Source: Candidatus Eiseniibacteriota bacterium (GTDB taxonomy: Bacteria; Eisenbacteria; RBG-16-71-46). Taken from it: a stretch of DNA of 64,000 nt. Made by a program: the position numbers and the translations under genes. The notes under the pieces were generated by a model. The model searched no databases. It was not told where the DNA came from and worked only from the letters and a program-made list of their open reading frames with translations. Positions 32,973 through 52,190 of this stretch are shown here, piece by piece. Each line of letters begins with the position of its first letter. The stretch's first letter is position 1. The stretch lies in NCBI GenBank assembly GCA_963707915.1, contig OY970178.1, positions 192,001 to 256,000 on the forward strand, in the 5' to 3' direction.

Positions 32973-33646
32973 CGCGGCCCGGCCTGGAGCTCGAGCGCGC
33001 GGCCGAGGTGACGCACGAGGATCGCGCCGGCCTCGCCGACGCTGGGGCCGAACGTGAGCACGCCGTCCTCGTGGCCGCCCATGACGAGGATCCCCAACGC
33101 GGCGAGCGGTCCGTCGCGGTGGAGCCGCTGCACCTCGGCGGCCATCTCGGGCGTGCCGTTCTGCGCGCCGTCGCGGGTCGCAGGCAGGCCGAGGGCCCGC
33201 GCCCCCCGCCAGACCTCGGGGGCGTGGGCGTGGAGCACCGCCCGCGCCGCCGGGGCGATGTCGTAGAGGGCGCCGTGGGTGAGCGATTCGGACGAGGGCG
33301 CCACCGGCCCCGCGCTGCGCACGCGGTTGCGCGCGGGGTCGTATTCCTCCACCACGCAGAAGTCGGCGAGCGTGAGCTGGCGCCGTCCGCCGGTCTGCGT
33401 GCCGGTGACGAGGAAGCGCCGCCGTCCGCGCGGCGCACCGCCGAAGGGGCCGAGGCGCGCGCTCACGTTGCCGTAGCCGAGGCCGCCGTAGCGCGCCGGG
33501 TCCTGGCCGAGCATCCCGAGCCGGGCGAGGATCTCGCGCCACGCGGCCAGCGCGCGCACCGCCTCCGCGTGCACGCGCTCCTCGAGCGGGCGCGTCTCGT
33601 GAACGGCCTCGAAGCGGATGACGCCTTCTGTGCGCGGATCGGCCAT
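32969..33646 (-). CDS. Class II aldolase/adducin family protein (MtnB/Ald2-like)
   Basis: GNVS.R, PSSESLTH, HAH and GHEDG metal-binding motifs; stop overlaps the mtnA start. Confidence 0.8.
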   Translation of the reverse strand: MADPRTEGVIRFEAVHETRPLEERVHAEAVRALAAWREILARLGMLGQDPARYGGLGYGNVSARLGPFGGAPRGRRRFLVTGTQTGGRRQLTLADFCVVEEYDPARNRVRSAGPVAPSSESLTHGALYDIAPAARAVLHAHAPEVWRGARALGLPATRDGAQNGTPEMAAEVQRLHRDGPLAALGILVMGGHEDGVLTFGPSVGEAGAILVRHLGRALELQAGPR

Positions 33647-33715
33647 CACCGGCACGTTAGCATCGGGTCCCGCCGGCGGCCAGCCGGTGGCCGCCTCGAC
33701 GCCGGGGTCCCGGCG

Positions 33716-34327
33716 CTACTCGGGGTCCCGGCCCGCGTCCGCGGCGTCCGCGACCGCGGGAGGCTGCTGCTGGCACTCGGCACAGAGCTCGTCGGCGAGC
33801 AGGAAGTCGGGATGCTTGCGCAGGAAGACCTGCGCCTGGGCGAGCGGGTCGGAAGGCTCGCGGTGGGTCCCGCAGCCCGGGCACAGCGGCAACATCGCGC
33901 GCAGCTCGACGAGCTGGGTGGCGTCCTCCAGCGCGACCAGCACGAGGTCGCGGCCGCCGAGGCTGACCGGCGAGGCGCTGACCTGGAACCAGCAGTCCTC
34001 GGGCTGTCCGTTCGCCTGCACGAGCATGTGTGCCAGGCGGCGCGGCGCCGGCCTCCCCGCCGCCGCCGCCTCGATCGAGCGCCGCACCAGGCAGGACGGG
34101 CAGAAGTCGGTGGCGCCGCATTCGCCGCGGGAGTCGCGCGGGAAGATGCAGTGGACCGTGCTTCCGAGCGGCTTGCCCAGCCTGGCTTCGCCCCGGTCCC
34201 CCAGCCACAGCCGGGCCGCCCGGTTCGCCTCCAGGATCGTCGCGGCGGAGTCCACGATGAATGCCATCGAGGGGATCGCATCGAGCAGCGCGAGCTGGCT
34301 GGAGCCTTCGGGCAGCAGGGGTTCCAT
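33716..34327 (-). CDS. PAS domain protein with Cys cluster and C-terminal CxxC...CxxC
   Basis: LLDAIPSMAFIVD...ANRAA; HC..CG...CPSC; LPLCPGC and LCAEC. Confidence 0.7.
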   Translation of the reverse strand: MEPLLPEGSSQLALLDAIPSMAFIVDSAATILEANRAARLWLGDRGEARLGKPLGSTVHCIFPRDSRGECGATDFCPSCLVRRSIEAAAAGRPAPRRLAHMLVQANGQPEDCWFQVSASPVSLGGRDLVLVALEDATQLVELRAMLPLCPGCGTHREPSDPLAQAQVFLRKHPDFLLADELCAECQQQPPAVADAADAGRDPE

Positions 34328-34475
34328 GGAGGTGACCTCGGAGCGCGCAGCATCAGGGCGGCGTTGCGGGAACCAGGCTCGGTTGTCGGACTCCCCCGGG
34401 AACGGGCGCTCGAGCTCCGAGATTGACGCAAGCCTGCCACAGGCGCGGACCGCAGGCAAACCGCGCGACCGGCCG

Positions 34476-35754
34476 GGTGATGTACCAGTGTTTGTGTCAG
34501 GGACAAGGAAGGGGGTACTCCAACAGAGGCAGGGCCAACCACCTCAAGGAGGTACCCCCATGCAGCAGGTCGCTGCGGTGCGCAGTGTGAAGCAGGCGGT
34601 GCGGATGCTCAAGTCGATGGCGGTGCAGGCGCCGGAGTGGAACGAGCTGAGGCAGGCGAGCCAGGCCGCGGTCCGGCGGGTGATCGAGGAGCGGATGCAC
34701 GGCCTGGTGGGCAACCGGATCGCCGAACTGGCCGCGGCCGGGGTCGCTGACCGCCGCAATGGCAGCTACCGCCGCTGGCTGTGGCATGAGGTCGGCGTCC
34801 TGGAGTTGCAGGTGCCACGCTCCCGGACCTACAGCGCGGTCGCCGTGCTGGGCCGCTATGCCCGGCGGGTGCCCCAACTCGAGCGGGTGATCCTGGCCGG
34901 CTTCGTCCTCGGGCTTTCGACCCGCAAGGTGGGCGAGGCGCTGCTGCCCCTGCTGGGCGAGCGGGTCAGCCCGGCGACGGTGAGCCGGGTGGCGCGGGGC
35001 CTGGATGAGGCGGCCGCCGCGTTCCATCGTCGCCCGCTCGCCAACCGTTACCGGGCCGTGCTGCTCGATGGCGTGGTGCTGGCCCGCAAGAGCGGCGCCG
35101 GGGCGTTGCGCCGGCCCGTGCTGGTGGCGCTCGGGATCACGCTCGCCGGGAAGAAGGAGATCCTCGACTTCCGCCTCGCCCCGGCCGAGAGCCAGCCGGC
35201 CTGGGAGGCGTTCCTCAACGATCTCTATGCCCGCGGGCTCACCGGCGAGGGCCTCACCCTGATCGCCACCGATGGCGGTGCCGGTCTGCTCGCCGCGCTG
35301 CCGCTGGTCTACCCGCGGGTCCGGGTCGGCCGCTGCTGGGCCCACAAGACCCGCAACATCCTCGACAAGGTGCGAGACACCGACCGCGAGCGGGTCAAGC
35401 GCGACCTGCACCGCATCAGCCACGCAGTCAACCGCACCACTGCACGAGCGGCCGCCCGGCACCTGGTCGACCGCTGGCACACCCGCTACCCGGCCGCGGT
35501 CCGCTGCCTGCAGCAGGACCTCGAGGACCTGCTGGCGTTCTTCGCCTTCGACGATTCCGCCTGGCGCCAGGCCACCCGCACCACCAACGCCATCGAACGC
35601 CGCTTCCGCGAGGTCCGCAGAAGAACGCGCCCCATGGGGGTCTTCAGTGACCGCACCTCCATGGAGCGCATCCTGTTCGCCGTCTTCACCTACGAAAACC
35701 ACAAGGCCGGAACCTCAGCCCCCTTCCTCCTGACACATGACTCTTGACGCTACC
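34476..35754 (+). mobile_element. IS256 family insertion sequence, complete
   Basis: Imperfect ~26-bp terminal IRs (GGT...TGTGTCAGG); 8-bp TSD ACCGGCCG at 34468-34475 and 35755-35762. Confidence 0.9.
34560..35747 (+). CDS. IS256 family transposase
   Basis: DRRNG, GLSTRKV, LLDG, TDG, RCWAHK and TTNAIER motifs. Confidence 0.93.
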   Translation: MQQVAAVRSVKQAVRMLKSMAVQAPEWNELRQASQAAVRRVIEERMHGLVGNRIAELAAAGVADRRNGSYRRWLWHEVGVLELQVPRSRTYSAVAVLGRYARRVPQLERVILAGFVLGLSTRKVGEALLPLLGERVSPATVSRVARGLDEAAAAFHRRPLANRYRAVLLDGVVLARKSGAGALRRPVLVALGITLAGKKEILDFRLAPAESQPAWEAFLNDLYARGLTGEGLTLIATDGGAGLLAALPLVYPRVRVGRCWAHKTRNILDKVRDTDRERVKRDLHRISHAVNRTTARAAARHLVDRWHTRYPAAVRCLQQDLEDLLAFFAFDDSAWRQATRTTNAIERRFREVRRRTRPMGVFSDRTSMERILFAVFTYENHKAGTSAPFLLTHDS

Positions 35755-41993: not shown

Positions 41994-44115
41994 GCGCACG
42001 CTTCGGCGCGCGGCGGCGGCCACCCCCGGGCTCCGGAGGTGGCCGCCGCGTCACCGGCGCGGCCTGGAGTCCCGCCGCTAGTCCAGCACCACCGCGCTCG
42101 CCGACGTCACGCGTCCGGCCTGGCTGAGGCGGATCACGTAACGGCCGGCCGGGACCCGGCGGCCCGCCGACAGGTCCACCGCGTGCCGCCCCGCGCCGAG
42201 CGAACCGACCTCGCGCCGGGCCATGCGACGCCCGCCGACGTCGAAGAGCTCGAGCTGCGCCGGCGCCGCGGAGGGCAGGACGAACTCCACCGACAGCCGG
42301 CCCCGTGGGCTCGGATTGGGCCGCGCGCCCCCGAGGGCGAACTCGAGCGCGCCGACCTCCACCCAGGCCTCGCCGAAGAACAGGTGCACGCCGGCGTCCA
42401 CGACGCCGAGGCAGTAGCCGTAGCGGCGGCCGGCCTGCACCGCCTCGTCCACGAACCGCAGGTAGCCCGAGCCGTCGGTGGAGACCGCCGCGATCGGGGC
42501 CCAGTCGGAGCCCTCGGTGCGCCGGTACACCGTGGCGTCGAGCGCCCCGCCCGCCGGCGCGAACCAGGTGAGCTCGGCACGGCCGGAGCGCGCGATCGCC
42601 GCGACCAGCGAGGCCAGCGTGGCGACCGGCGCGCCGGGCGAGACCACGGCGGTCCGGCTGCGATTCCCGTGCAAGTCCACTGCCACGAGCTTGTAGTGGA
42701 AGTCCCCGGTTCCGTCCACGAACGACGTGTCGCGCGTGGCGGCCACGAGGTTGCCGCTCCCGGGGACGAAATCGGCCGTGGCGCCGCGGTAGAGTCGGAA
42801 TTCGAGCAGGTCCTCGGCGGGACTGGGGCCCCAGTGGAGCGAGGTCGACGCGCCGAGGTAGGCGGCGACGAAGGGGACGGGCAGCGGGGGCGCGAGGTTG
42901 TCCACGGAGTAGCCGCTGTCCACGTTGGATTCGTAGAAGACCGTCGCGCTCGTGGTCAGCGCGGTGACGAAGAACGCCGTGAAGGGGTTGGAGCCCGGCA
43001 TCGAGTCCTGGGTGGTGGCGGCCGTGTACCCGTAGCCGGCGAGCTGTTCGGCGGGCAACGTGGCGATGGCCTCCCAGTACTCGATCGCCGCCGCGCCGGA
43101 GCCGGTGCGCCCCGGCATGGCGCGCACCGTCGCCTCGCCCGCGCTCCCGGCGCGTGCCCGGGCCTCCGCGGCGGCCTCCGGCGGCAGCCGGCGCCAGACC
43201 CGGTAGCCGCTGACCAGCGCGATCCCCGCGGTGTCGTAGGAGGAGCGCGTCCAGCGCAGGAACACGCGGCCGCCCTGGTCGTTGGGCACGTCGCGCACCG
43301 AGACGAGGTGCGGCAACCTCGGGTCCGGACCCGGCACCTGGCAGCTCGCGAGCAGGATGCTGATCTCGCCGGCATCGCTCCAGCCCGAGACCAGCAGGTC
43401 CTGGGCGCCGTCGCCATCGAGGTCTCCGGTCGCGAGGCCCAGCGGGAAGGGAGACACGGGATAGCTGGAGTGGACCGTGAACGTGCCGTTCCCGACCCCA
43501 CCGGCGCCTCCGCCCTTCAGGACCACGACGTTGTCGCCAGTGGCGTCGGTGAAGACGAGGTCGGCGATCGCGTCTCCGTCGAAGTCGGCGGCGACCACGC
43601 CGCCCACGTTGGCCAGGCCAGCGGCGTAGGCCGTGGGCGTGCCGAAGGTGCCGGCCGCGCCGCCCTTGAGGACGGTCACGCCCCCGTAGCTGGAATTCGA
43701 GACCGCCAGGTCCAGGTTGCCGTCCCCGTCGAGGTCGCACAGGGTGACGTCATAGGGCTGAGCGCCGGCAGCGTAGTGCTGCGCGGTCCCGAAGGTGCCG
43801 GTGCCCTGGCCGAACATCACCGCCACGCCGTTGAAGCTCTCGGTCGCGACCAGGTCGAGGTGGCCGTCGTGGTTCAGGTCCCCCGCCGCGATCCCCACCG
43901 AGATCCCGGCGAGCGGGTAGGTGACCGGGGTGGCGAAACTGCCGTTGCCGACGCCGCCACTGCCCAGGCCGATCAGCACCGAGAACGCCTTGACGGCGTT
44001 GTTCGCGACGGCGAGGTCGAGGATGCCGTCCTGGTTGAAGTCCCCGGCCACCACCTCGTAGGGGCCGGGGCCCGCGCCGGAGCTCACGGCGGCCGCGAAC
44101 GTGCCGTCGCCTAGG

Positions 44116-45176
44116 TGTGGAGTCTCAGGACGTTGTTCTCACCCGGGGTCGCAACCGACTGAAGGGTGGTAGGCCGTCCAGACTACCGTGTGGACGTCTC
44201 TGGTTGTAGTAGCGAAGCCAGCGGGGCAGGACGCGGGCCCGGACCTCGGAGGTCAGGTAGGCGGCCCCGTAGGCCCACTCGCGGATCAGGGTCTGGATGA
44301 AGCGCTCGGCCTTGCCGTTCGTCCTCGGGCGGTAGGGCCGCGTACGTTTGTGGACCAAGCGCAGCCGTTCCACCTCGTGAGCAAAGCAGCGCGCGAGGTA
44401 GCCCGAGCCGTTGTCACTGAGGATTCGGCGGATGCGGATGCCCAAGGTGCGGAACCAGGCCACAGCACGACGCAGGAACGCTGCCGAGGTCACGCCGGTC
44501 TCGTCCCGCAGCACCTCGGCATAGGCGATCCGGCTGCGGTCGTCGATGGCGACGTGCACGTAGTCCCAGCCCACCCGATGACCCCGTCGCCGGCGGTCTC
44601 CGGTGATGCGGTGACCGTAGAAGCCACTGATCCGCCCCAGTTTCTTGACGTCGAAGTGGAGCAGGTCCCCCGGGCGACGATGCTGGTAGCGGTTCGCGGG
44701 CTCCTGCGGCTCGAGCTTCTGGAGCCGTTCCAGCCCGGCGCGTTTGAGCACCCGCGCCACCGTTGCCCGCGGACGCTTCAGGTCCCGGGCGATCTGCGGC
44801 CCGGTCATCCTCGTGCGCCGCAGCAGCAGGATCATCTCCCGCCATTCGATCGGGGTCGCGTGGGGGTGGCGCCGAGGCCGCGAGCTGCGGTCCTGCAGGC
44901 TGGCCGAGTCCTCGGCCTGGTAGCGGCCCAGCCACTTGTGGGCCGTCCGGCGGCTGATCCCTGCGGCCGTGGCCGCTCGGGTCACGCTCCAGCCCGACTC
45001 CCGTACCCGGCCAACAAGCAGTGCTCGACTGGCAGGGCAGGTCCGTGCTCCACTGTGGAGGTTCATCCGGGGTTCCTCGCTGGTCAGACGTTGACGGCTT
45101 CGAACACCACCAACATCTGTCAGAAGGACCCCGGTTGAACAGTCTCAACCTGTGAACAACCTAGTGAGACTCCACA
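44116..45176 (-). mobile_element. IS481 family insertion sequence, complete
   Basis: Terminal IR TGTGGAGTCTCA/TGAGACTCCACA; 6-bp TSD CCTAGG at 44110-44115 and 45177-45182. Confidence 0.93.
44125..45066 (-). CDS. IS481 family transposase
   Basis: HTH, DRSSRP, HFDVKKLGRI, SDNG and PRTNGKAERF motifs. Confidence 0.94.
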   Translation of the reverse strand: MNLHSGARTCPASRALLVGRVRESGWSVTRAATAAGISRRTAHKWLGRYQAEDSASLQDRSSRPRRHPHATPIEWREMILLLRRTRMTGPQIARDLKRPRATVARVLKRAGLERLQKLEPQEPANRYQHRRPGDLLHFDVKKLGRISGFYGHRITGDRRRRGHRVGWDYVHVAIDDRSRIAYAEVLRDETGVTSAAFLRRAVAWFRTLGIRIRRILSDNGSGYLARCFAHEVERLRLVHKRTRPYRPRTNGKAERFIQTLIREWAYGAAYLTSEVRARVLPRWLRYYNQRRPHGSLDGLPPFSRLRPRVRTTS

Positions 45177-45805
45177 CCTAGGCCGTGAAGGAACCAGACC
45201 TTGCTGTCTCCCATGGTCGTCACGACCAGGTCGAGGTGGCCGTCTCCGTCGAAGTCGGCGATGGCGATTCCGACGGGATGGGGGCCGACGGTGTGGAACT
45301 GTGGCGGGCCGAAGGTGCCATCGCCGATGCCGCCGCTTCCGCCGCCGAGCATCACGGCGATCGTGTTGTTGACTCCGCCGTCCTGGGCCTCTGACTGGCA
45401 GGCGACCAGGTCCAGGATGCCGTCGCCGTTCAGGTCGGCGAGCTCCACGCGGTTCGTGCGAGTGCCCACGGCCTGCAGCGTCGCCGGAGCGAACCAGGCC
45501 GGCTGGTCGCAAGGTGCGGACGCGCTGCCCGTCGGCGACAGCAGGCCGGTGCCGGCGAGCAGGCAGAAGGTCAGGAGCGTGGCGATGGAATGGAAGATGT
45601 TCCGCATGGTCGGCCTCCGCGCGTTCAGGGACAGGGGCGATCCCCGCTGGTCACCCAAGTACAGCATAGGACCGGCGGGAGCCGTCCGAAACCGGATTCT
45701 CGGCGCTGATGGCGGGGAGGCACGTCCGGTCCCGGCTGCGGGCACGACCCCCGCCCACTAGTGTATATTCCGACAGCCCATGACCTTCCAACCGAGGCCC
45801 GCCGC

Positions 45806-47878
45806 ATGAACCCGGTCGCCGACTCTCCCGCGCTCCAGCCGCCGTCCGATCTCAACCCCCGCCCCGAGCCGGTGCTCGACTTTCCCGACCGCGAGCTGGG
45901 GGAGATGACGCCGGCGGACTACGACACGCTGGGCTTCATGTCGGGGCTCGAGGTCCACCAGCAGATCGTCACCCGCGGCAAGCTCTTCTGCCGCTGCCCG
46001 GCCGGCCGGCGCGTCACCCGGGTGGACGCCGAGGTGCTGCGCCACATGCGCCCCACGCTCTCGGAGCTGGGCGAGTACGACGGCTGCGCGCTGATGGAGT
46101 TCAAGACCCGCAAGGAGATCGTCTACCTGCTCGAGCGGGGCACCGTCTGCACCTACGAGATCGACGACACGCCGCCCTTCCCGATGGACGACGAGGCGGT
46201 GCGCGTCGCCCTCGAGATCGCCCTGCTCTTCGGCCTGAACCTGGTCTCCGAGCTGCACGTGATGCGCAAGCAGTACCTGGACGGCTCGATCCCGACCGGC
46301 TTCCAGCGCACGGCGATGATGGGGCTCGCCGGGAGCATCCCGTTCCGGGTGCCCGAGCTGGGGGTGGACCGCGAACTGCGCATCCGCCAGTACTCGCTCG
46401 AGGAGGACTCCTGCCGCGAGGTCTCCGACGTCGGGCACCGCATCACCTTCCGCACCGACCGGCTGGGGATGCCGCTGATCGAGACGGTGACCGAGCCCGA
46501 CCTGCTCACGCCCTTCGAGGTCGCGGCCGGTGGCCGCCTGCTGGCCCGCGTGGCGCGCGCCTCGGGCAAGGTGCGGCGCGGGGCCGGCGCGGCGCGCCAG
46601 GACACCAACGTGTCGGTCGCCGGCGGCCGGCGGGTCGAGATCAAGGGCGTGGGCAACCACCGGCACCTGCCGCTGCTCACGCACAACGAGGCCTTCCGGC
46701 AGCTGAACCTGCTGCGGGTCCGGGCCGAGCTGCGGCGCCGCGGGGTGAAGGCCGAGGCGCTGGCGGTCCCCGACGGGCCGCGGCCCTGGGAGCGCTCGCC
46801 GCTGGTCGTGCATGCGGGCCCCATGCTCCGGCGCTCCGAGTACATGCCGCTGCGCGAGGCGCGCGAGCGGGGCGACACGGTGGTGGCGCTGGCGCTGCCC
46901 GGCTTCGGCGGTCTGCTGTCGCGGCCCACGCAGCCGGGCGTCACCTTCGCCCGCGAGTTCGCCGACCGCGTCCGGGTGATAGCCTGCCTCACGGCGCGCC
47001 CGTTCATGATCCACTCCGACCTGACCGACTACGGCCTGACGCCCGCCGAATGGCGCGCGCTGCGCAAGAGCCTGCGCGCCGGGCCGGCCGACGCCACCGT
47101 GGTGTTGTGGGGCACCGAGCAGGACGTGGAGACGGCGGTGCGCGAGGTGTTCCTGCGCGCGCGCGACGCGCTGGTCGGAGTCCCGGCGGAGACGCGACAG
47201 TCGTTCTCGGACGGGACCAACGGGTTCGAGCGCATCCTGCCGGGAGCCGACCGCATGTACCCCGACACCGACACGCCGCCGAAGGCCATCCCCGAGGAGT
47301 GGGTGGTCGAGATCACCGCGCGCCTGTCCGAGCGTCCCTGGGTCCGGGAGGAGCGCTACCGCGCCCTCGGGCTGTCCGAGGAGCTGGCGAACCGCCTGGC
47401 GGTCGCCACCGGGACCGCGGACCTCTTCGACGCGCTCGCCGTGCCGGTCGGGCCGGCCGCGGCGCGCGTGGCGGGGGCGCTGCTCAAGCGCCCGGCGCGG
47501 TGGCGCCGGCGGCGGTCCGGAGAGGCGCCGGCCAGCGCGGAGCGCCTGCAGCCGCTGGTGGCGGCCTTCGTGCGGGGCGAGTTGCGGCCGGAGGGCTTCG
47601 AGCGCGCGATCGAGCGGGCGCTGGTCGAACCGGGGCGCACGGTGGTGGAGCTGATCGAGGCCGTGCGGCCGCGGGCGGGCGACGCCGAGGCGGCCGCCCG
47701 CAGCATCGCCGCGGCGGTCGAGCGCTGCGCCGGGCAGCCGGAGCGCCCGCGGTCGAGCCTGGTGCGCTGGACCATGGGGCTGGTGATGCGGGACCTGGTC
47801 GGGCGCGTGGATCCGCGCGAGCTGCAGGCGCGGCTCGAAGCGGCGCTCGCGGCCCGCGAGATCGGGGTGACGCGATGA
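45806..47878 (+). CDS. gatE: Glu-tRNA(Gln) amidotransferase subunit E (archaeal type)
   Basis: GLEVHQQ..KLFCRCP, RPT.SELGEYD, MRKQYLDGSIPTGFQRT, LEED, DRLG.PLIE, VRRG.G..RQD.NVS, insertion domain, PGADRMYPDTD. Confidence 0.9.
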   Translation: MNPVADSPALQPPSDLNPRPEPVLDFPDRELGEMTPADYDTLGFMSGLEVHQQIVTRGKLFCRCPAGRRVTRVDAEVLRHMRPTLSELGEYDGCALMEFKTRKEIVYLLERGTVCTYEIDDTPPFPMDDEAVRVALEIALLFGLNLVSELHVMRKQYLDGSIPTGFQRTAMMGLAGSIPFRVPELGVDRELRIRQYSLEEDSCREVSDVGHRITFRTDRLGMPLIETVTEPDLLTPFEVAAGGRLLARVARASGKVRRGAGAARQDTNVSVAGGRRVEIKGVGNHRHLPLLTHNEAFRQLNLLRVRAELRRRGVKAEALAVPDGPRPWERSPLVVHAGPMLRRSEYMPLREARERGDTVVALALPGFGGLLSRPTQPGVTFAREFADRVRVIACLTARPFMIHSDLTDYGLTPAEWRALRKSLRAGPADATVVLWGTEQDVETAVREVFLRARDALVGVPAETRQSFSDGTNGFERILPGADRMYPDTDTPPKAIPEEWVVEITARLSERPWVREERYRALGLSEELANRLAVATGTADLFDALAVPVGPAAARVAGALLKRPARWRRRRSGEAPASAERLQPLVAAFVRGELRPEGFERAIERALVEPGRTVVELIEAVRPRAGDAEAAARSIAAAVERCAGQPERPRSSLVRWTMGLVMRDLVGRVDPRELQARLEAALAAREIGVTR

Positions 47879-49263
47879 GCGACGATCGCTACAAGGGCTA
47901 CCGTGACCCCTGCCTGTCGGTGCTGAAGCGCTTCGACGTGACCGTGTGGTGCGAGCTGCGCGCCCGCACCACGCGCGGCGACTTCGAGGGCCTGCTGCTC
48001 CCGCGCTCGGAGACCGCCGACCCGCTGCACCTGGTGCTCAAGCTGCCGACCGGCTACAACGTCGGCCTGCGCCACGACACCGTGACCGGGCTCGAGAAGA
48101 TCGGCTACCGCGAGGCGCACTACCAGATCCCCGAGCGCCAGTTCCCGGTGAACCCCTCGATGCCGCGGGTGAAGCTGCTGGGCACCGGCGGCACGATCGC
48201 CTCGCGGCTCGACTACCGCACCGGTGCGGTCATCCCCGCCTTCAGCCCCGGCGAGCTCTACGGTTCGGTGCCGGAACTGGCGGACATCTGCAACCTCGAG
48301 ACCGAGAAGCTCTTCGGCGTGTTCTCGGAGAACATGGGACCGGAGCAGTACATCGTGCTGGCCGAGCGGATCGGCGAGGCCATCCGCGACGGTTGGGACG
48401 GCGTCGTCGTCGGCCACGGCACCGACACCATGCACCACACCGCCGCGGCGCTCTCGTTCATGGTCCAGCGCTCGCCGGTGCCGATCATCATGGTGGGCAG
48501 CCAGCGCTCCTCCGACCGGCCCTCGTCGGACGCGGCCCAGAACCTGATCAGCGCGACCTGGGCCGCCGCCCACGGTCCCATCGCCGAGGTCATGGTGTGC
48601 ATGTTCGGCCCGACCTCGGACCGCTACAACCTGCTGCACCGCGGCACGCGGGTGCGCAAGATGCACACCTCCTACCGCAGCACCTTCCGCACGCTGGGGG
48701 ACATCCCGCTGGCGATGGTCGAGCGCGGGAAGCTCACGCCGCTCAAGGAGGACTGGGCGCCCCGGCGCAAGGACCGCGAGGTCACGGTGCAGGCGGTGTT
48801 CGAGGAGCGCGTCACCATCGTCTACTACTACCCGAACATGAATCCCGACCTGATCGACGCGCTGGTGGAGAAGGGCTACAAGGGCATCGTCATCGCGGGC
48901 ACCGGCCTGGGGCACGTGAACCGCAAGATCTACCCGGCGCTCGATCGCGCGTGCAAGGCCGGCGTGCTGATCTTCATGGCGGTGCAGACGCTCTGGGGCT
49001 TCGTGCAGATGTACGTCTACGAGACCGGCCGCGAGATCCTCGAGCTGGGCGTCACCCCGCTGGCGAACATGCTGCCCGAGGTGGCCTACATCAAGCTGGG
49101 CTGGGCGCTGGGCGTGCATCCCGACGATCCCGAGGCGGCGCGGCGCCTCATGATCACGCCGATCGCCGGCGAGACCACCGAGCGCGAGCCGCACGACGGC
49201 TACCTGGTGTTCCAGGGAGGCGTTCCCGAGATCCAGGAGTTCCTGGGCAAGGTCTGGAAGTGA
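47875..49263 (+). CDS. gatD: Glu-tRNA(Gln) amidotransferase subunit D (archaeal type)
   Basis: GatD-specific N-domain LKL.TGYNVG; TGGTIASRLDYRTGAV, HGTDT, GSQRSSDRPSSD and RKMHTS motifs; 4-nt overlap with gatE. Confidence 0.92.
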   Translation: MSDDRYKGYRDPCLSVLKRFDVTVWCELRARTTRGDFEGLLLPRSETADPLHLVLKLPTGYNVGLRHDTVTGLEKIGYREAHYQIPERQFPVNPSMPRVKLLGTGGTIASRLDYRTGAVIPAFSPGELYGSVPELADICNLETEKLFGVFSENMGPEQYIVLAERIGEAIRDGWDGVVVGHGTDTMHHTAAALSFMVQRSPVPIIMVGSQRSSDRPSSDAAQNLISATWAAAHGPIAEVMVCMFGPTSDRYNLLHRGTRVRKMHTSYRSTFRTLGDIPLAMVERGKLTPLKEDWAPRRKDREVTVQAVFEERVTIVYYYPNMNPDLIDALVEKGYKGIVIAGTGLGHVNRKIYPALDRACKAGVLIFMAVQTLWGFVQMYVYETGREILELGVTPLANMLPEVAYIKLGWALGVHPDDPEAARRLMITPIAGETTEREPHDGYLVFQGGVPEIQEFLGKVWK

Positions 49264-49285
49264 ACCGACAAGGACGGATGGCCGC

Positions 49286-50728
49286 ATGAAGCCGACGACG
49301 ATGCCAGTGACCGAAGCGAGACCGGAACCGCAGACGGGGGGCACGGGGGCCGCGGCGCCGAGGTTGACGGCCTGCCTGCTCGAGCGCGAGATCGGCCGGC
49401 CGGCCGCGGCCTGGACGGTGGACGACCTGCTGGCGCTCGCCGCCGGGCGCGGCGTGCGCCTGGTGAGCCTGATGCACGTGGGCGGCGACGGCTGCCTCAA
49501 GGTCCTGGACTTCGTGCCGCAGAGCCGCGAACACCTGCGCGACATCCTCTCCGGGGGCGAGCGGGCCGACGGCTCGAGCCTGTTCGCCGGGCTCGGTCTC
49601 GAGGTCGGGGCCTCGGACATCCTGCTGCGGCCGCGCGTCGAGACCGCATTCCTCGACCCGTTCGCGGCCCAGCCCACGCTGGCCTTGCTGTGCGGACACG
49701 CGGGGCGCGACGGCGACAGCCTGCCCCAGTCGCCCGACACCATCGTGCGGCGGGCCGCCGCGCGGACGGCGAGCGAACTGGACGTCGACCTGCACGCGCT
49801 GGGCGAGGTCGAGTACTTCCTCGGCCGTCGCGCGGGCGAGGAGGACGCCTACGGCGCGAACGACCGCGGCTACCACGCCACCTCGCCGTTCGTCTTCGGC
49901 GAGGCGCTGCGGCGCGAGGCCATGGCCCTGCTGGCCGAGATCGGCGTGCCGGTCAAGTACGGGCACAGCGAGGTGGGCTACGTCCAGGCCACCGAGTCGG
50001 ACGGGTACATCTGGGAGCAGCACGAGATCGAGCTCGGGCTCGCCCCGCTCGCCGCCGCCGCGGACGCGGTGGTGCTCACGCACTGGGTGCTGCGCAACCT
50101 CGCCTACCGCGAGGGCATGCGCTGCAGCTTCGATCCGATCCTGCGCCGCGGTCACGCCGGCACCGGCCTGCATTTCCATTTCTCGCCGGTCCGCGACGGG
50201 GCCCACCTCGGCGGGCGCGGTGCGGACGGGACGCTGAGCGCGCCCGCGCAGTGGCTGATCGCCGGGCTGGTGCGCATGGGCGGGGCGCTGATGGCGTTCG
50301 GCAACCGCACCGAGGGCTCGCTCATCCGCCTCACGCAGGCCAAGGAGGCGCCCAACACCATCGTCTGGGGCGAGTTCGACCGCAGCGCGCTGGTGCGGCT
50401 GCCGATCGTGGCGACGACCACCGACGGCCGCGCGGTCAGCCCGCCGACCATCGAGTTCCGGCTGCCCGACGGTTCGGCCCACCCGCACCTGCTGCTCGCG
50501 GGCGTCGCCCAGGTGATGATCGAGGCGCGCTCGGTCGGGCACCTCGAGGCGTTGCTCGAGCGCACCTCGGTGAAGGCGCTCAAGCGCGGGGCCGGGACCG
50601 CCACGCCCGTGCCGACGCGGTTCCTGGAGGTGGCGCAGGCGCTCCAGGCGAGCCGCTCCGCGCTCGAGGCCGGCGGGGTCTTCCCGCCGGTGCTGCTGGA
50701 TCGGTTCATCGAGCGGTTGAGGGCCTGA
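49286..50728 (+). CDS. glnA: Glutamine synthetase family protein (type I-like)
   Basis: DGSS, GEVEYF, HSEVG, QHEIE, GTGLHFH, RL...EAP, RSALVR and EFR.PD motifs. Confidence 0.82.
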   Translation: MKPTTMPVTEARPEPQTGGTGAAAPRLTACLLEREIGRPAAAWTVDDLLALAAGRGVRLVSLMHVGGDGCLKVLDFVPQSREHLRDILSGGERADGSSLFAGLGLEVGASDILLRPRVETAFLDPFAAQPTLALLCGHAGRDGDSLPQSPDTIVRRAAARTASELDVDLHALGEVEYFLGRRAGEEDAYGANDRGYHATSPFVFGEALRREAMALLAEIGVPVKYGHSEVGYVQATESDGYIWEQHEIELGLAPLAAAADAVVLTHWVLRNLAYREGMRCSFDPILRRGHAGTGLHFHFSPVRDGAHLGGRGADGTLSAPAQWLIAGLVRMGGALMAFGNRTEGSLIRLTQAKEAPNTIVWGEFDRSALVRLPIVATTTDGRAVSPPTIEFRLPDGSAHPHLLLAGVAQVMIEARSVGHLEALLERTSVKALKRGAGTATPVPTRFLEVAQALQASRSALEAGGVFPPVLLDRFIERLRA

Positions 50729-50785
50729 GGCGGCGGCGGGCCCGCAGCCCCGCGGCCGCGCGCCCCTCGGGGCGCCCGGGTCTGA

Positions 50786-50821
50786 ACGAAGACGGCCGGG
50801 CACGCGCCCGGCCGTCTTCGT
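50786..50821. terminator. Perfect 16-bp stem hairpin between convergent genes
   Basis: ACGAAGACGGCCGGGC-ACGC-GCCCGGCCGTCTTCGT. Confidence 0.7.
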
Positions 50822-50838
50822 GAGCGTCGCGACGCGCC

Positions 50839-52190
50839 TCAGGCCTTGCCGGCCAGCGCCTCCTCGATGGTCGAGCAGTCCACCAGGCCGGCGCAGCCGT
50901 AGAGCACGGGCAGCAGCTTCGCGGGCGCGTGGCGGCGACGCAGGTCGGCGACCAGGTCGGTGCCGGCGCGGTAGCACGGCAGGTACATGCGCCCCATCAG
51001 CGGGTGCTTGCCCCACGCCCCGGCGAACTTGCCGGCGCGCTCCTCGGAGACCAGGAAGTCGCGCCGCAGCACCGGCGCCACCTCCTTCTCCGCCAGGCGC
51101 TCCTGCCACGTCAGGTACGAGGCCTGGTTCTTGGCGTCGTCCTGCAGCAGCGCCAGCAGCAGGCCGATCTTGAGGTCGTCGTCGGGGACCTGCTCCAGCT
51201 CGGTCACGCCGTGGGCGATGAGGATGGCGTTGTTGGCGATGCCCTCGGAGAGCGTGGCCCCGCGGGTGTTCATGGTGAGCACCGAGGCCTCGAAGCCGAT
51301 CTGCTTGCGCCAGTAGAGGTCCTGCAGGAACGCGAAGGTGGTGACGTGGCCGGGCACCACCTCGTGCGAGACCAACTGCTCGAACTCGGGCACCGTGATC
51401 TGGAGCGACGCGTTGATCTCGTACGAGGCCTCGTACTCCGGCCGGCCGCCGGGGCGGCGCTTGCGGCCCAGGTAGTTCATCGAGCCCGAGAACCATGCGT
51501 CCTTGATGGGCAGGAACTCGATGTTGTCCATCGGCACGTCGCCCATCTCGCTTGGCAGGAACGGGCGCAGGTTGCGCTCGGCCAGCGCGCGGTAGTGGGC
51601 GATGTAGGCGGCGCCGACCGACCGCACGCACGCCATCGGCACGTAGCGTGCGCCGCGCCAGGCGTCCACCGCGGCGAGCAGGTCGCGCGTCGCCCTTCGA
51701 CGGGTGGCCGACGCGGGCGAGCAGTTCCTGCACCTGGCCGCGCTTGGCCGCCGGGTCCGAGGGCGAGGGCGGCTGGCCGGTCGAGGCCAGCACGCAGCGC
51801 TCGTAGGGCACGGGCTGGCCCTTGCCGAGGATCTCCATCGCCAGGTCCCACATCACCTCGAAGCGACTCGGCCATCCCCGCGACGTAGCGCCCGCGCAGG
51901 CCGGGGAGCTCCTTCGCCTCGGCGCCGAGGGCGGCGATGGCGCCGCGCACGTCCACCGCGGCGAGGTAGGCCTCGATCGCGGCGCGGTCGGGCGCCTTCG
52001 CCGAGACCCCGCCGCCGTCGCGCACGGGCGCGGCGGTGGGGTGCGTGTAGGCGAGCGGCATGGGGGCGTCGGAGAACCACGAGTCGGCGATGAAGCGCCC
52101 CAGGCCGGAGGGGTTCATGACGTCGCCGCCCCACAGGGTGTCGATGCCGAGGACGGCGTTGGCGACGTGCTCGTCGAAGCGCTGGCTCAT
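50839..52190 (-). pseudogene. DUF885-like putative metallopeptidase with two +1 frameshifts (~51863, ~51685)
   Basis: Three ORF pieces join to 449 aa; HEVVPGH and LSEG motifs; GGAGG RBS. Confidence 0.65.

Follow-up and report, generated by a model that had tools for sequence, protein, structure and literature searches.

In reviews of 2008 and 2021, the glutamyl-tRNA(Gln) amidotransferase GatDE is described as archaeal, and archaea are reported to have it because glutaminyl-tRNA synthetase (GlnRS) is absent there. Amidotransferases are reported to read two features of their tRNA, base pair 1-72 and the size of the D-loop: A1-U72 in the case of archaeal GatDE (PMC2330236), and U1-A72 together with D-loop size on bacterial tRNA in the case of GatCAB, the bacterial amidotransferase that shares the chemistry of GatDE and whose GatB is a paralogue of GatE. 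Retention of an amidotransferase beside a direct synthetase has itself been reported for Thermus, Deinococcus and Bdellovibrio, where GatCAB accompanies asparaginyl-tRNA synthetase (AsnRS) in dual asparagine routes, with B. bacteriovorus being a predicted asparagine auxotroph (PMC4206432). Here, we describe a gatE-gatD pair followed by a gene of the glutamine synthetase (GS) family in “the window”, a stretch of 64,000 nucleotides (positions 192,001 to 256,000 of contig OY970178.1, assembly GCA_963707915.1) from a Candidatus Eiseniibacteriota bacterium whose genome (G000, the source genome) is a single 3.62-Mb contig. Within a bacterial GatDE clade that has received little discussion, this copy is unremarkable except for its lineage-specific link to GS, and we lean towards it encoding a functional GatDE that acts on bacterial Glu-tRNA(Gln), beside GlnRS and GatCAB, and is apparently co-transcribed with a glutamine-supplying GS-like enzyme.

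With the archaeal enzymes of M. thermautotrophicus (2D6F) and Pyrococcus abyssi (1ZQ1), which are its best sequence and fold matches, the pair shares the two subunits, the order of their domains (GatD_N and an AspRS-like insertion in GatE among them), the catalytic motifs, the magnesium ligands and the adjacency of the genes. It differs from them in its bacterial host, which has GlnRS, AsnRS and GatCAB, in a tRNA(Gln) with U1-A72 where the archaeal one has A1-U72, in belonging to a separate bacterial clade with a highly variable GatE tail, and in the GS-like gene joined to the operon. GatCAB, co-resident in the source genome, has an amidase-type GatA plus GatC where this system has an asparaginase-type GatD, and its GatB is without the insertion domain, whereas the reading of U1-A72 and of D-loop size is something this GatDE would have to do likewise. 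The dual asparagine routes, in turn, concern Asn and GatCAB, while here it is Gln and GatDE, with GS-family genes present.

Family assignment of the two subunits

That the first gene encodes a true GatE and not a GatB, as the sequence-only reading had it, is borne out by its product (P0001) scoring 390.9 bits against the NCBIfam model TIGR00134 (gatE_arch, cut-off 319.55) and only 98-130 bits against GatB models with cut-offs of 315-338; PF02934 is matched over residues 46-500. The closest solved relatives by sequence are the archaeal GatE chains 1zq1_C (E 4e-88) and 2d6f_C. Residues H51, E199 and E226, invariant in 35 bacterial GatE sequences, align with His15, Glu157 and Glu184 of the M. thermautotrophicus enzyme, which are reported to be the magnesium ligands of the GatE kinase site (PMC2330236). 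When an AlphaFold2 model built from the alignment of these 35 sequences (mean predicted local distance difference test score, pLDDT, 79.7) was used in a fold search, GatE of 2d6f and 1zq1 came first (E ~1e-35, TM-score to target 0.77-0.79), followed by GatB chains, aligned over ~600-670 columns including the tail, with AspRS chains giving a partial fold match on the insertion domain and the tail matching the tRNA-binding domains of yeast and human GlnRS. Across the AspRS-like insertion region P0001 aligns to both archaeal GatE chains, the Pfam GAD domain scoring only 17.4 bits (cut-off 23.4), and the cradle motifs and the insertion domain noticed earlier are retained.

Conservation along the protein is far from even. 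Among 65 bacterial GatE sequences, core residues 38-130 show a mean identity to the query of 74%, with 56 of the 93 columns conserved at 90% or more; the C-terminal 185 residues, as had also been noticed, are divergent in sequence. Pfam GatB_Yqey is not found in P0001, yet the tail helices are predicted at a pLDDT of ~90 in a GatB-like helical fold. In archaeal GatE and in GatB it is this helical and tail region that is reported to read the tRNA D-loop, and the corresponding part of bacterial GatE is thus either free to vary or co-varies with the tRNA of each lineage. As a separate observation, two database proteins, P0125 (943 aa) and P0057 (969 aa), look like GatE-GatD fusions, either real or gene-calling artefacts; P0125 has a GatE-like start and a GatD match over residues 492-936, which leaves room for a tail-less GatE part.

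The product of the second gene (P0002) exceeds the cut-offs of both TIGR02153 (486.7 bits, cut-off 324) and NF003217 (479.1 bits, cut-off 310), carries the GatD-specific N-terminal domain GatD_N (PF18195, 37.5 bits, cut-off 25.7) along with Asparaginase (PF00710) and Asparaginase_C (PF17763), both above their cut-offs, and has 1zq1_A as its closest solved relative (E 1e-114). The glutaminase motifs, already pointed out together with the N-domain, are TGGT (104-107), HGTDT (181-185) and RKMH (261-264), all conserved with respect to 1zq1_A and 2d6f_A; each of them contains what we take to be a catalytic residue, i.e., a Thr nucleophile and the members of a Thr-Lys-Asp triad. Across bacterial phyla, GatD identity amounts to 60-83%.

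GatD was searched for exhaustively over representatives clustered at 50% identity, with 438 clusters reaching E 1e-30 or better. From these, 119 full-length representatives (those below 400 or above 500 aa being left out), the query and 19 GatD proteins whose bacterial loci are named were placed in LG+G4 trees, made quickly and not bootstrapped. All 20 rows named as bacterial, together with three unnamed representatives, form one clade (SH-aLRT 100), which sets them apart from plain asparaginases and within which the phyla are intermixed. Its sister (98) is a four-row group whose one named member is from Candidatus Sigynarchaeota, an Asgard archaeon, and the three named rows among the remaining 112 are from Thermococcus, Bathyarchaeia and Thermoplasmata, an organism name being carried by four of the 20 tree clusters that were looked up. 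As no asparaginase paralogue was found in the source genome by tblastn, AnsA of three Bacteroidales genomes was taken as the outgroup for rooting, and it placed the root among those other 112 rows with weak support; the matches listed from the word-index search with GatE were all close bacterial relatives, and the tree was therefore built for GatD alone. The topology is compatible with a single ancient transfer, presumably out of archaea and into bacteria, and with later exchange between bacterial lineages.

Distribution, tRNA setting and the probable substrate

The rarity implied by regarding this as an archaeal-type enzyme in a bacterium has to be given up, as GatDE turns out to be widespread in bacteria. 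Scanning one genome per species for GatE gave at least 599 pattern matches and at least 585 confirmed GatE relatives, and the best 80 of these all have bacterial titles, spanning about ten phyla at 39-76% identity (Gemmatimonadota, Eisenbacteria, Acidobacteriota, Myxococcota, Krumholzibacteriota, Aminicenantes, Calditrichota, Ignavibacteriota and Planctomycetia, as well as many Bacteroidales). The protein collection holds at least 8000 GatE clusters at E 1e-20 or better, with the 120 matches listed all being at least 62% identical, and several of the top clusters, from Gemmatimonadota or Eisenbacteria, have already been named GatE by NCBI or JGI. Nearer to the source genome, GatE is above the cut-off in six of the 41 nearest genomes (G026, an unpublished genome, is among the negatives in these counts), to which G007 adds a gatD-GS pair, and in 24 of the 172 genomes of a phylum sample with completeness of at least 80%, representing 14 of its 78 genera. 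What emerges is an intact and strongly conserved bacterial GatDE branch found in many phyla, usually with GlnRS, as opposed to the archaeal signature enzyme of the reviews; full-text literature searches returned no paper on bacterial GatDE.

The archaeal situation, a host without GlnRS, does not apply to the source genome or to most of the GatE-positive ones. GlnRS is above the cut-off in 98 genomes of the phylum sample and in 22 of its 24 GatE-positive members, the two without it being G104 (92% complete) and G025 (95% complete), the latter having GatDE and one glutamyl-tRNA synthetase (GluRS). Each of the five GatE-bearing genomes that were tested outside this phylum has it as well, and AsnRS is above the cut-off in all five genomes searched for it, i.e., the source genome and four of those five. 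No GatB apart from GatE itself was found in G041-G044 (two complete Bacteroidales chromosomes, another Bacteroidales and one Gemmatimonadales). Since kin are not independent, these co-occurrence counts are descriptions and not tests.

In the source genome, which the sequence-only reading had suggested checking for gatCAB and glnS, GatA, GatB and GlnRS are all present above cut-off, together with AsnRS and the aspartate-ammonia ligase AsnA (see the table), so that GatDE is not needed for decoding there. Both tRNA-Gln genes, as well as tRNA-Asn, carry U1-A72 and G73, while A1-U72 occurs, among the tRNA calls ending in CCA, only in tRNA-Trp. A1-U72 characterises the archaeal substrate and not the protein family as such. 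The bacterial base pair expected earlier on general grounds is therefore the actual one, which means that any tRNA(Gln) substrate would be bacterial-type and that recognition must differ from the archaeal A1-U72 rule. The D-loop of tRNA-Gln(CUG) has 7 nt, against 9 nt in both tRNA-Glu, the latter having G1-C72 or G1.U72. Genes glnS, gltX, tRNA-Gln(CUG) and tRNA-Glu(CUC) are clustered at C1:318955-322551; tRNA-Glu(CUC) combines the G1.U72 wobble with A73, and tRNA-Glu(UUC) has G1-C72 with G73. Besides the GluRS adjoining glnS there is a second copy, the frame-split one in the table, which is intact in relatives, two GluRS copies being common in this family of bacteria; the residue on which GluRS discrimination is reported to depend is Arg358 of T. 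thermophilus (PMC2978374). A coupling of GatE to the second GluRS was considered and dropped, as that copy is common with or without GatE and was not seen in G041, G042, G044 and G045.

Gene neighbourhoods point in the direction of tRNA(Gln) metabolism. In every one of the 80 loci long enough to show it, gatD follows gatE. Directly downstream of gatD, glnS is found in four loci from Gemmatimonadota/Gemmatimonadales (L031, L033, L038 and L046), and upstream of gatE in one from Myxococcota (L039), which amounts to five of the 80 loci in at least two arrangements; these locus-linked genes score >700 bits on TIGR00440, and gltX lies ~3 kb upstream in the L046 genome. It is this linkage to glnS and gltX that indicates tRNA(Gln). 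A third conserved partner was not found, as, after clustering of 685 neighbour open reading frames (ORFs), no family besides GatE and GatD occurred in more than 12 of the 80 loci, and those 12 represent Bacteroidales-level synteny (LptD, OstA, MlaD, amidase). A linked tRNA gene was likewise rejected, ARAGORN having called seven scattered tRNAs in the 80 loci, none of them for Gln and none recurrent. The GlnRS of the five glnS-linked loci score best (>900 bits) on a Deinococcus-type GlnRS/YqeY fusion model, of which they match only the first ~560 positions and hence lack the YqeY part.

In the reading that we lean towards, GatE would bind Glu-tRNA(Gln), here with U1-A72 and a short D-loop, and phosphorylate the glutamyl side chain with ATP and magnesium, GatD would free ammonia from glutamine (or asparagine) into an internal tunnel, and GatE would then amidate the activated side chain to give Gln-tRNA(Gln), with the type-I-like GS being able to supply the amide donor. 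As the route would run beside GlnRS and GatCAB, it would be a parallel or safety route, and not the sole source of Gln-tRNA, consuming Glu-tRNA(Gln) made by the GluRS enzymes of the lineage.

Quite a few points weigh against such a reading. The source genome, with its GlnRS, GatA, GatB, AsnRS and AsnA, has no apparent need for GatDE, and its tRNA-Gln carries U1-A72 instead of the archaeal A1-U72. On the second GatE model, NF003107, P0001 scores 449.6, just below the cut-off of 456, and over the helical and tail region (residues 506-690) the 65 bacterial GatE sequences average only 16-20% identity to the query, with three columns conserved at 90% or more. Even the three Bacteroidales and one Gemmatimonadales that have GatDE as their sole amidotransferase possess GlnRS (and AsnRS, in the three searched), and the substrate there would be a putative one; no assay of any bacterial GatDE was found in the literature.

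A broader and more tentative possibility is that bacterial GatDE, far from being a leftover, represents an old, distinct lineage adapted to U1-A72 tRNA(Gln), kept mainly beside GlnRS and converting Glu-tRNA(Gln) made by incompletely discriminating GluRS. According to the textbook account, acquisition of GlnRS forced GluRS to become discriminating; were this broader possibility true, that would not always have been so, two Gln-tRNA routes would operate in many members of the Fibrobacterota-Chlorobiota-Bacteroidota (FCB) group, Myxococcota and Acidobacteriota, and some lineages would have the indirect route coupled to glnS or to a glutamine synthetase of its own. Should the enzyme be active on bacterial tRNA(Gln) at all, the rules by which amidotransferases recognise base pair 1-72 and the D-loop would have to be reconsidered, some bacteria would have two or even three Gln-tRNA routes, and the indirect pathway would, at least once in its history, have passed from archaea, perhaps from an Asgard-like donor, to bacteria.

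It is unlikely, in our estimation, that bacterial GatDE has instead been repurposed for a non-translational job, whether the amidation of some other glutamyl-linked molecule or service as a regulated glutaminase/asparaginase in nitrogen metabolism. Such a job would explain the persistence of GatDE in cells that have GlnRS, as nearly all GatE-positive members of the phylum sample and all five genomes tested from other phyla do, and it would sit well with the poorly conserved sequence of the GatE tail and with the GS-like or asnA genes that some lineages have there. However, the kinase and CCA-binding core as a whole hardly varies across phyla, the tail keeps its confidently predicted GatB-like fold, no partner family other than those already named recurs in more than 12 of the 80 loci, and the linked genes glnS and gltX point to tRNA.

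The GS-like gene and its link to gatDE

The third gene encodes a divergent member of the GS family (P0003), in which Pfam Gln-synt_C (PF00120) scores 119.1 bits (cut-off 24) and Gln-synt_N remains under its cut-off (29.4 against 33.4). Alignments to GS I chains of known structure (3ng0, 4s17) reach E 1e-27, and the protein shares with type I GlnA the fold family and the stretches DGSS, EVEYF, HSEVG, QHEIE, GLHFH, SLIRL, AKEAP, DRSALVRLP and EFRLPD, which we assume to be the metal, ATP and ammonium sites of GS. It differs from type I GlnA in falling far under the equivalog cut-off of TIGR00653 (137.7 against 429.15). Its nearest ESM Atlas clusters, from Acidobacteriota and Bacteroidota, are named only “glutamine synthetase family protein”. 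The sole other GS-family match in the source genome is a long ORF at C1:2110462-2111013, which, going by its length, might at a guess be a type III enzyme.

The gatE-gatD-GS order is kept in the congener G004 and in G019 and G025, and gatD-GS in G007 at a contig end, so the synteny that the sequence-only reading proposed to examine holds among relatives; it does not hold more widely, a GS-like gene being found within 7 kb of gatDE in only two of the 80 bacterial loci, a Planctomycetia and a Bacteroidales metagenome-assembled genome (L054, L100), where it lies upstream, in neither case downstream, and is 34-35% identical. A GS-like orthologue is present in 12 of the 41 relatives, including all six that are GatE-positive, and stands without adjoining gatDE in three of them, where the gene ahead of it is asnA (G001), a TRAP-transporter gene (G008) or an S46 peptidase gene (G033). 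Because the gene stands alone in these three relatives and 78 of the 80 wider loci are without it, the GS link is real but local: the GS-like gene is independent of GatDE, and the link is a lineage-specific operon arrangement and not part of the enzyme.

The earlier notion of a “self-contained module” is accordingly not upheld, and an obligate GS-GatD-GatE assembly, in which glutamine would be handed directly to GatD, appears improbable. In its favour one could cite the gatD-GS adjacency in the source genome and in G004, G007, G019 and G025, the two wider cases within 7 kb, the presence of the GS-like gene in every GatE-positive relative, and the fact that, apart from this gene, the genome has just one GS-family match, the long ORF elsewhere. 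Against it stand the wider loci just mentioned, the three lone orthologues, and the upstream position and low identity of the GS-like genes in L054 and L100.

Two observations concern the GS-like gene in individual genomes. In G001 (L125 7746-9233), an asnA gene precedes the GS-like gene in the same orientation, 72 nt away, at the position that gatE-gatD has in the source genome, whose own asnA is elsewhere (C1:746114-747127) and is 47% identical to that of G001. In G004 (L104 10949-12405), the GS-like gene is broken into many frames, with in-frame TGA; the assemblies of both G004 and the source genome consist of few contigs, so such frame breaks may be consensus indel errors and not marks of pseudogenes.

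The presence of asnA at the gatDE position in G001 also bears on whether the substrate has switched to Asp-tRNA(Asn), giving a tRNA-dependent asparagine route, which we hold to be more doubtful still than the two alternatives above. Such a switch would be in keeping with tRNA-Asn of the source genome having the same U1-A72 and G73 as its tRNA-Gln, and with archaeal GatD-type subunits being reported to take Asn or Gln as donor. Nevertheless, AsnRS, AsnA and GatCAB are all in this genome, and AsnRS is in every other GatDE-bearing genome searched for it. The locus is linked to glnS, gltX and GS-like genes, with neither asnS nor aspS among the families present in at least three of the 80 loci (only some of the clusters having been named), and in published modelling the GatE insertion domain, which P0001 retains, is reported to clash with AspRS.

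Operon layout and flanking sequence

The coordinates of the features are collected in the table below. The 4-nt overlap of gatE and gatD, in which the gatD ATG sits within the ATGA that ends gatE, the GS-family gene 22 nt downstream and the hairpin after it, all noticed in the sequence-only reading, are confirmed by the ORFs, their translations and folding. The 110-nt intergenic region 50729-50838 has a minimum free energy of -79.8 kcal/mol (z -3.14), with none of 200 shuffles being as stable; the hairpin has no T tract, and a consensus terminator scan gave 0 sites. A consensus scan of 45000-51500 for sigma-70-like promoters found none.

Features of the operon and its flanks (window positions) and of the Gln/Asn-tRNA machinery of the source genome (G000)
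Feature	Position	Strand	Description
Upstream intergenic region	45746..45805	+	No sigma-70-like site; ahead of gatE
gatE	45806..47878	+	690 aa, P0001; kinase/amidotransferase and tRNA-binding subunit; ORF and translation
gatD	47875..49263	+	462 aa, P0002; asparaginase-type glutaminase subunit
Spacer, 22 nt	49264..49285	+	AAGGA ribosome-binding-like motif ahead of the GS-like ATG
GS-family gene	49286..50728	+	480 aa, P0003; divergent type-I-like glutamine synthetase
G+C-rich hairpin	~50786..50821	.	16-bp stem, 4-nt loop; between the GS-like gene and the convergent ORF 50839-51669
ORF, 276 aa	50839-51669	-	No Pfam family; kept in G004 (91% identity) and G001 (83%)
GlnRS	G000		676 bits summed, above cut-off
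gatA and gatB	G000		Above cut-off
AsnRS	G000		Present
AsnA homologue	G000		Present
GluRS adjoining glnS	G000		Present
Second GluRS copy, bacterial-type	G000 C1:1918352-1919475		Split over three frames

The three genes appear to be co-transcribed in this order of bacteria. Metatranscriptome contigs (two libraries of one study) of a relative ~90% identical span all three at similar depth, one 4.5-kb contig bridging gatD and the GS-like gene and reaching beyond. The hint is a weak one, as contigs cannot prove transcription and RNA libraries may hold DNA; moreover, no sequencing run contained more than 0.14 of the words, and the contigs stem from relatives and can show neither transcript ends nor level.

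In GC3 and codon adaptation, the three genes fall at the 89th, 99th and 77th percentile among 1107 long reference ORFs of the genome, in line with the host-like codon style seen earlier, and G+C content is 72-75% across the whole window. The order GH77-gatE-gatD-GS-orf-SpoIIE is common to the source genome and its congener G004, and GH77-gatE-gatD to the congener G005 up to its contig end, with the genus orthologues being 91-99% identical. That the genes were recently imported from archaea, come from a chimeric assembly or are decaying remnants is refuted for all practical purposes by the single-contig bacterial genome, host-like codon use, flanking genes common to congeners, intact reading frames, closely similar genus orthologues and an old, monophyletic bacterial clade; only the IS481-family transposase gene that lies within a broken FG-GAP gene, at a distance of 740 nt upstream, could be cited in favour.

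The FG-GAP repeat gene itself (minus strand, window 42078-45745), the 5' part of which is the upstream neighbour of the operon, is in two pieces, 42078-44087 and 45161-45745, interrupted by the transposase gene at 44125-45066. It now stands between GH77 and gatE in the source genome, whereas in G004 and G005 GH77 is directly upstream of gatE. A Mutator-family transposase domain occurs in a 709-aa ORF farther upstream (window 33618-35747, plus strand), which, together with IS481, makes two insertion-sequence families within 12 kb.

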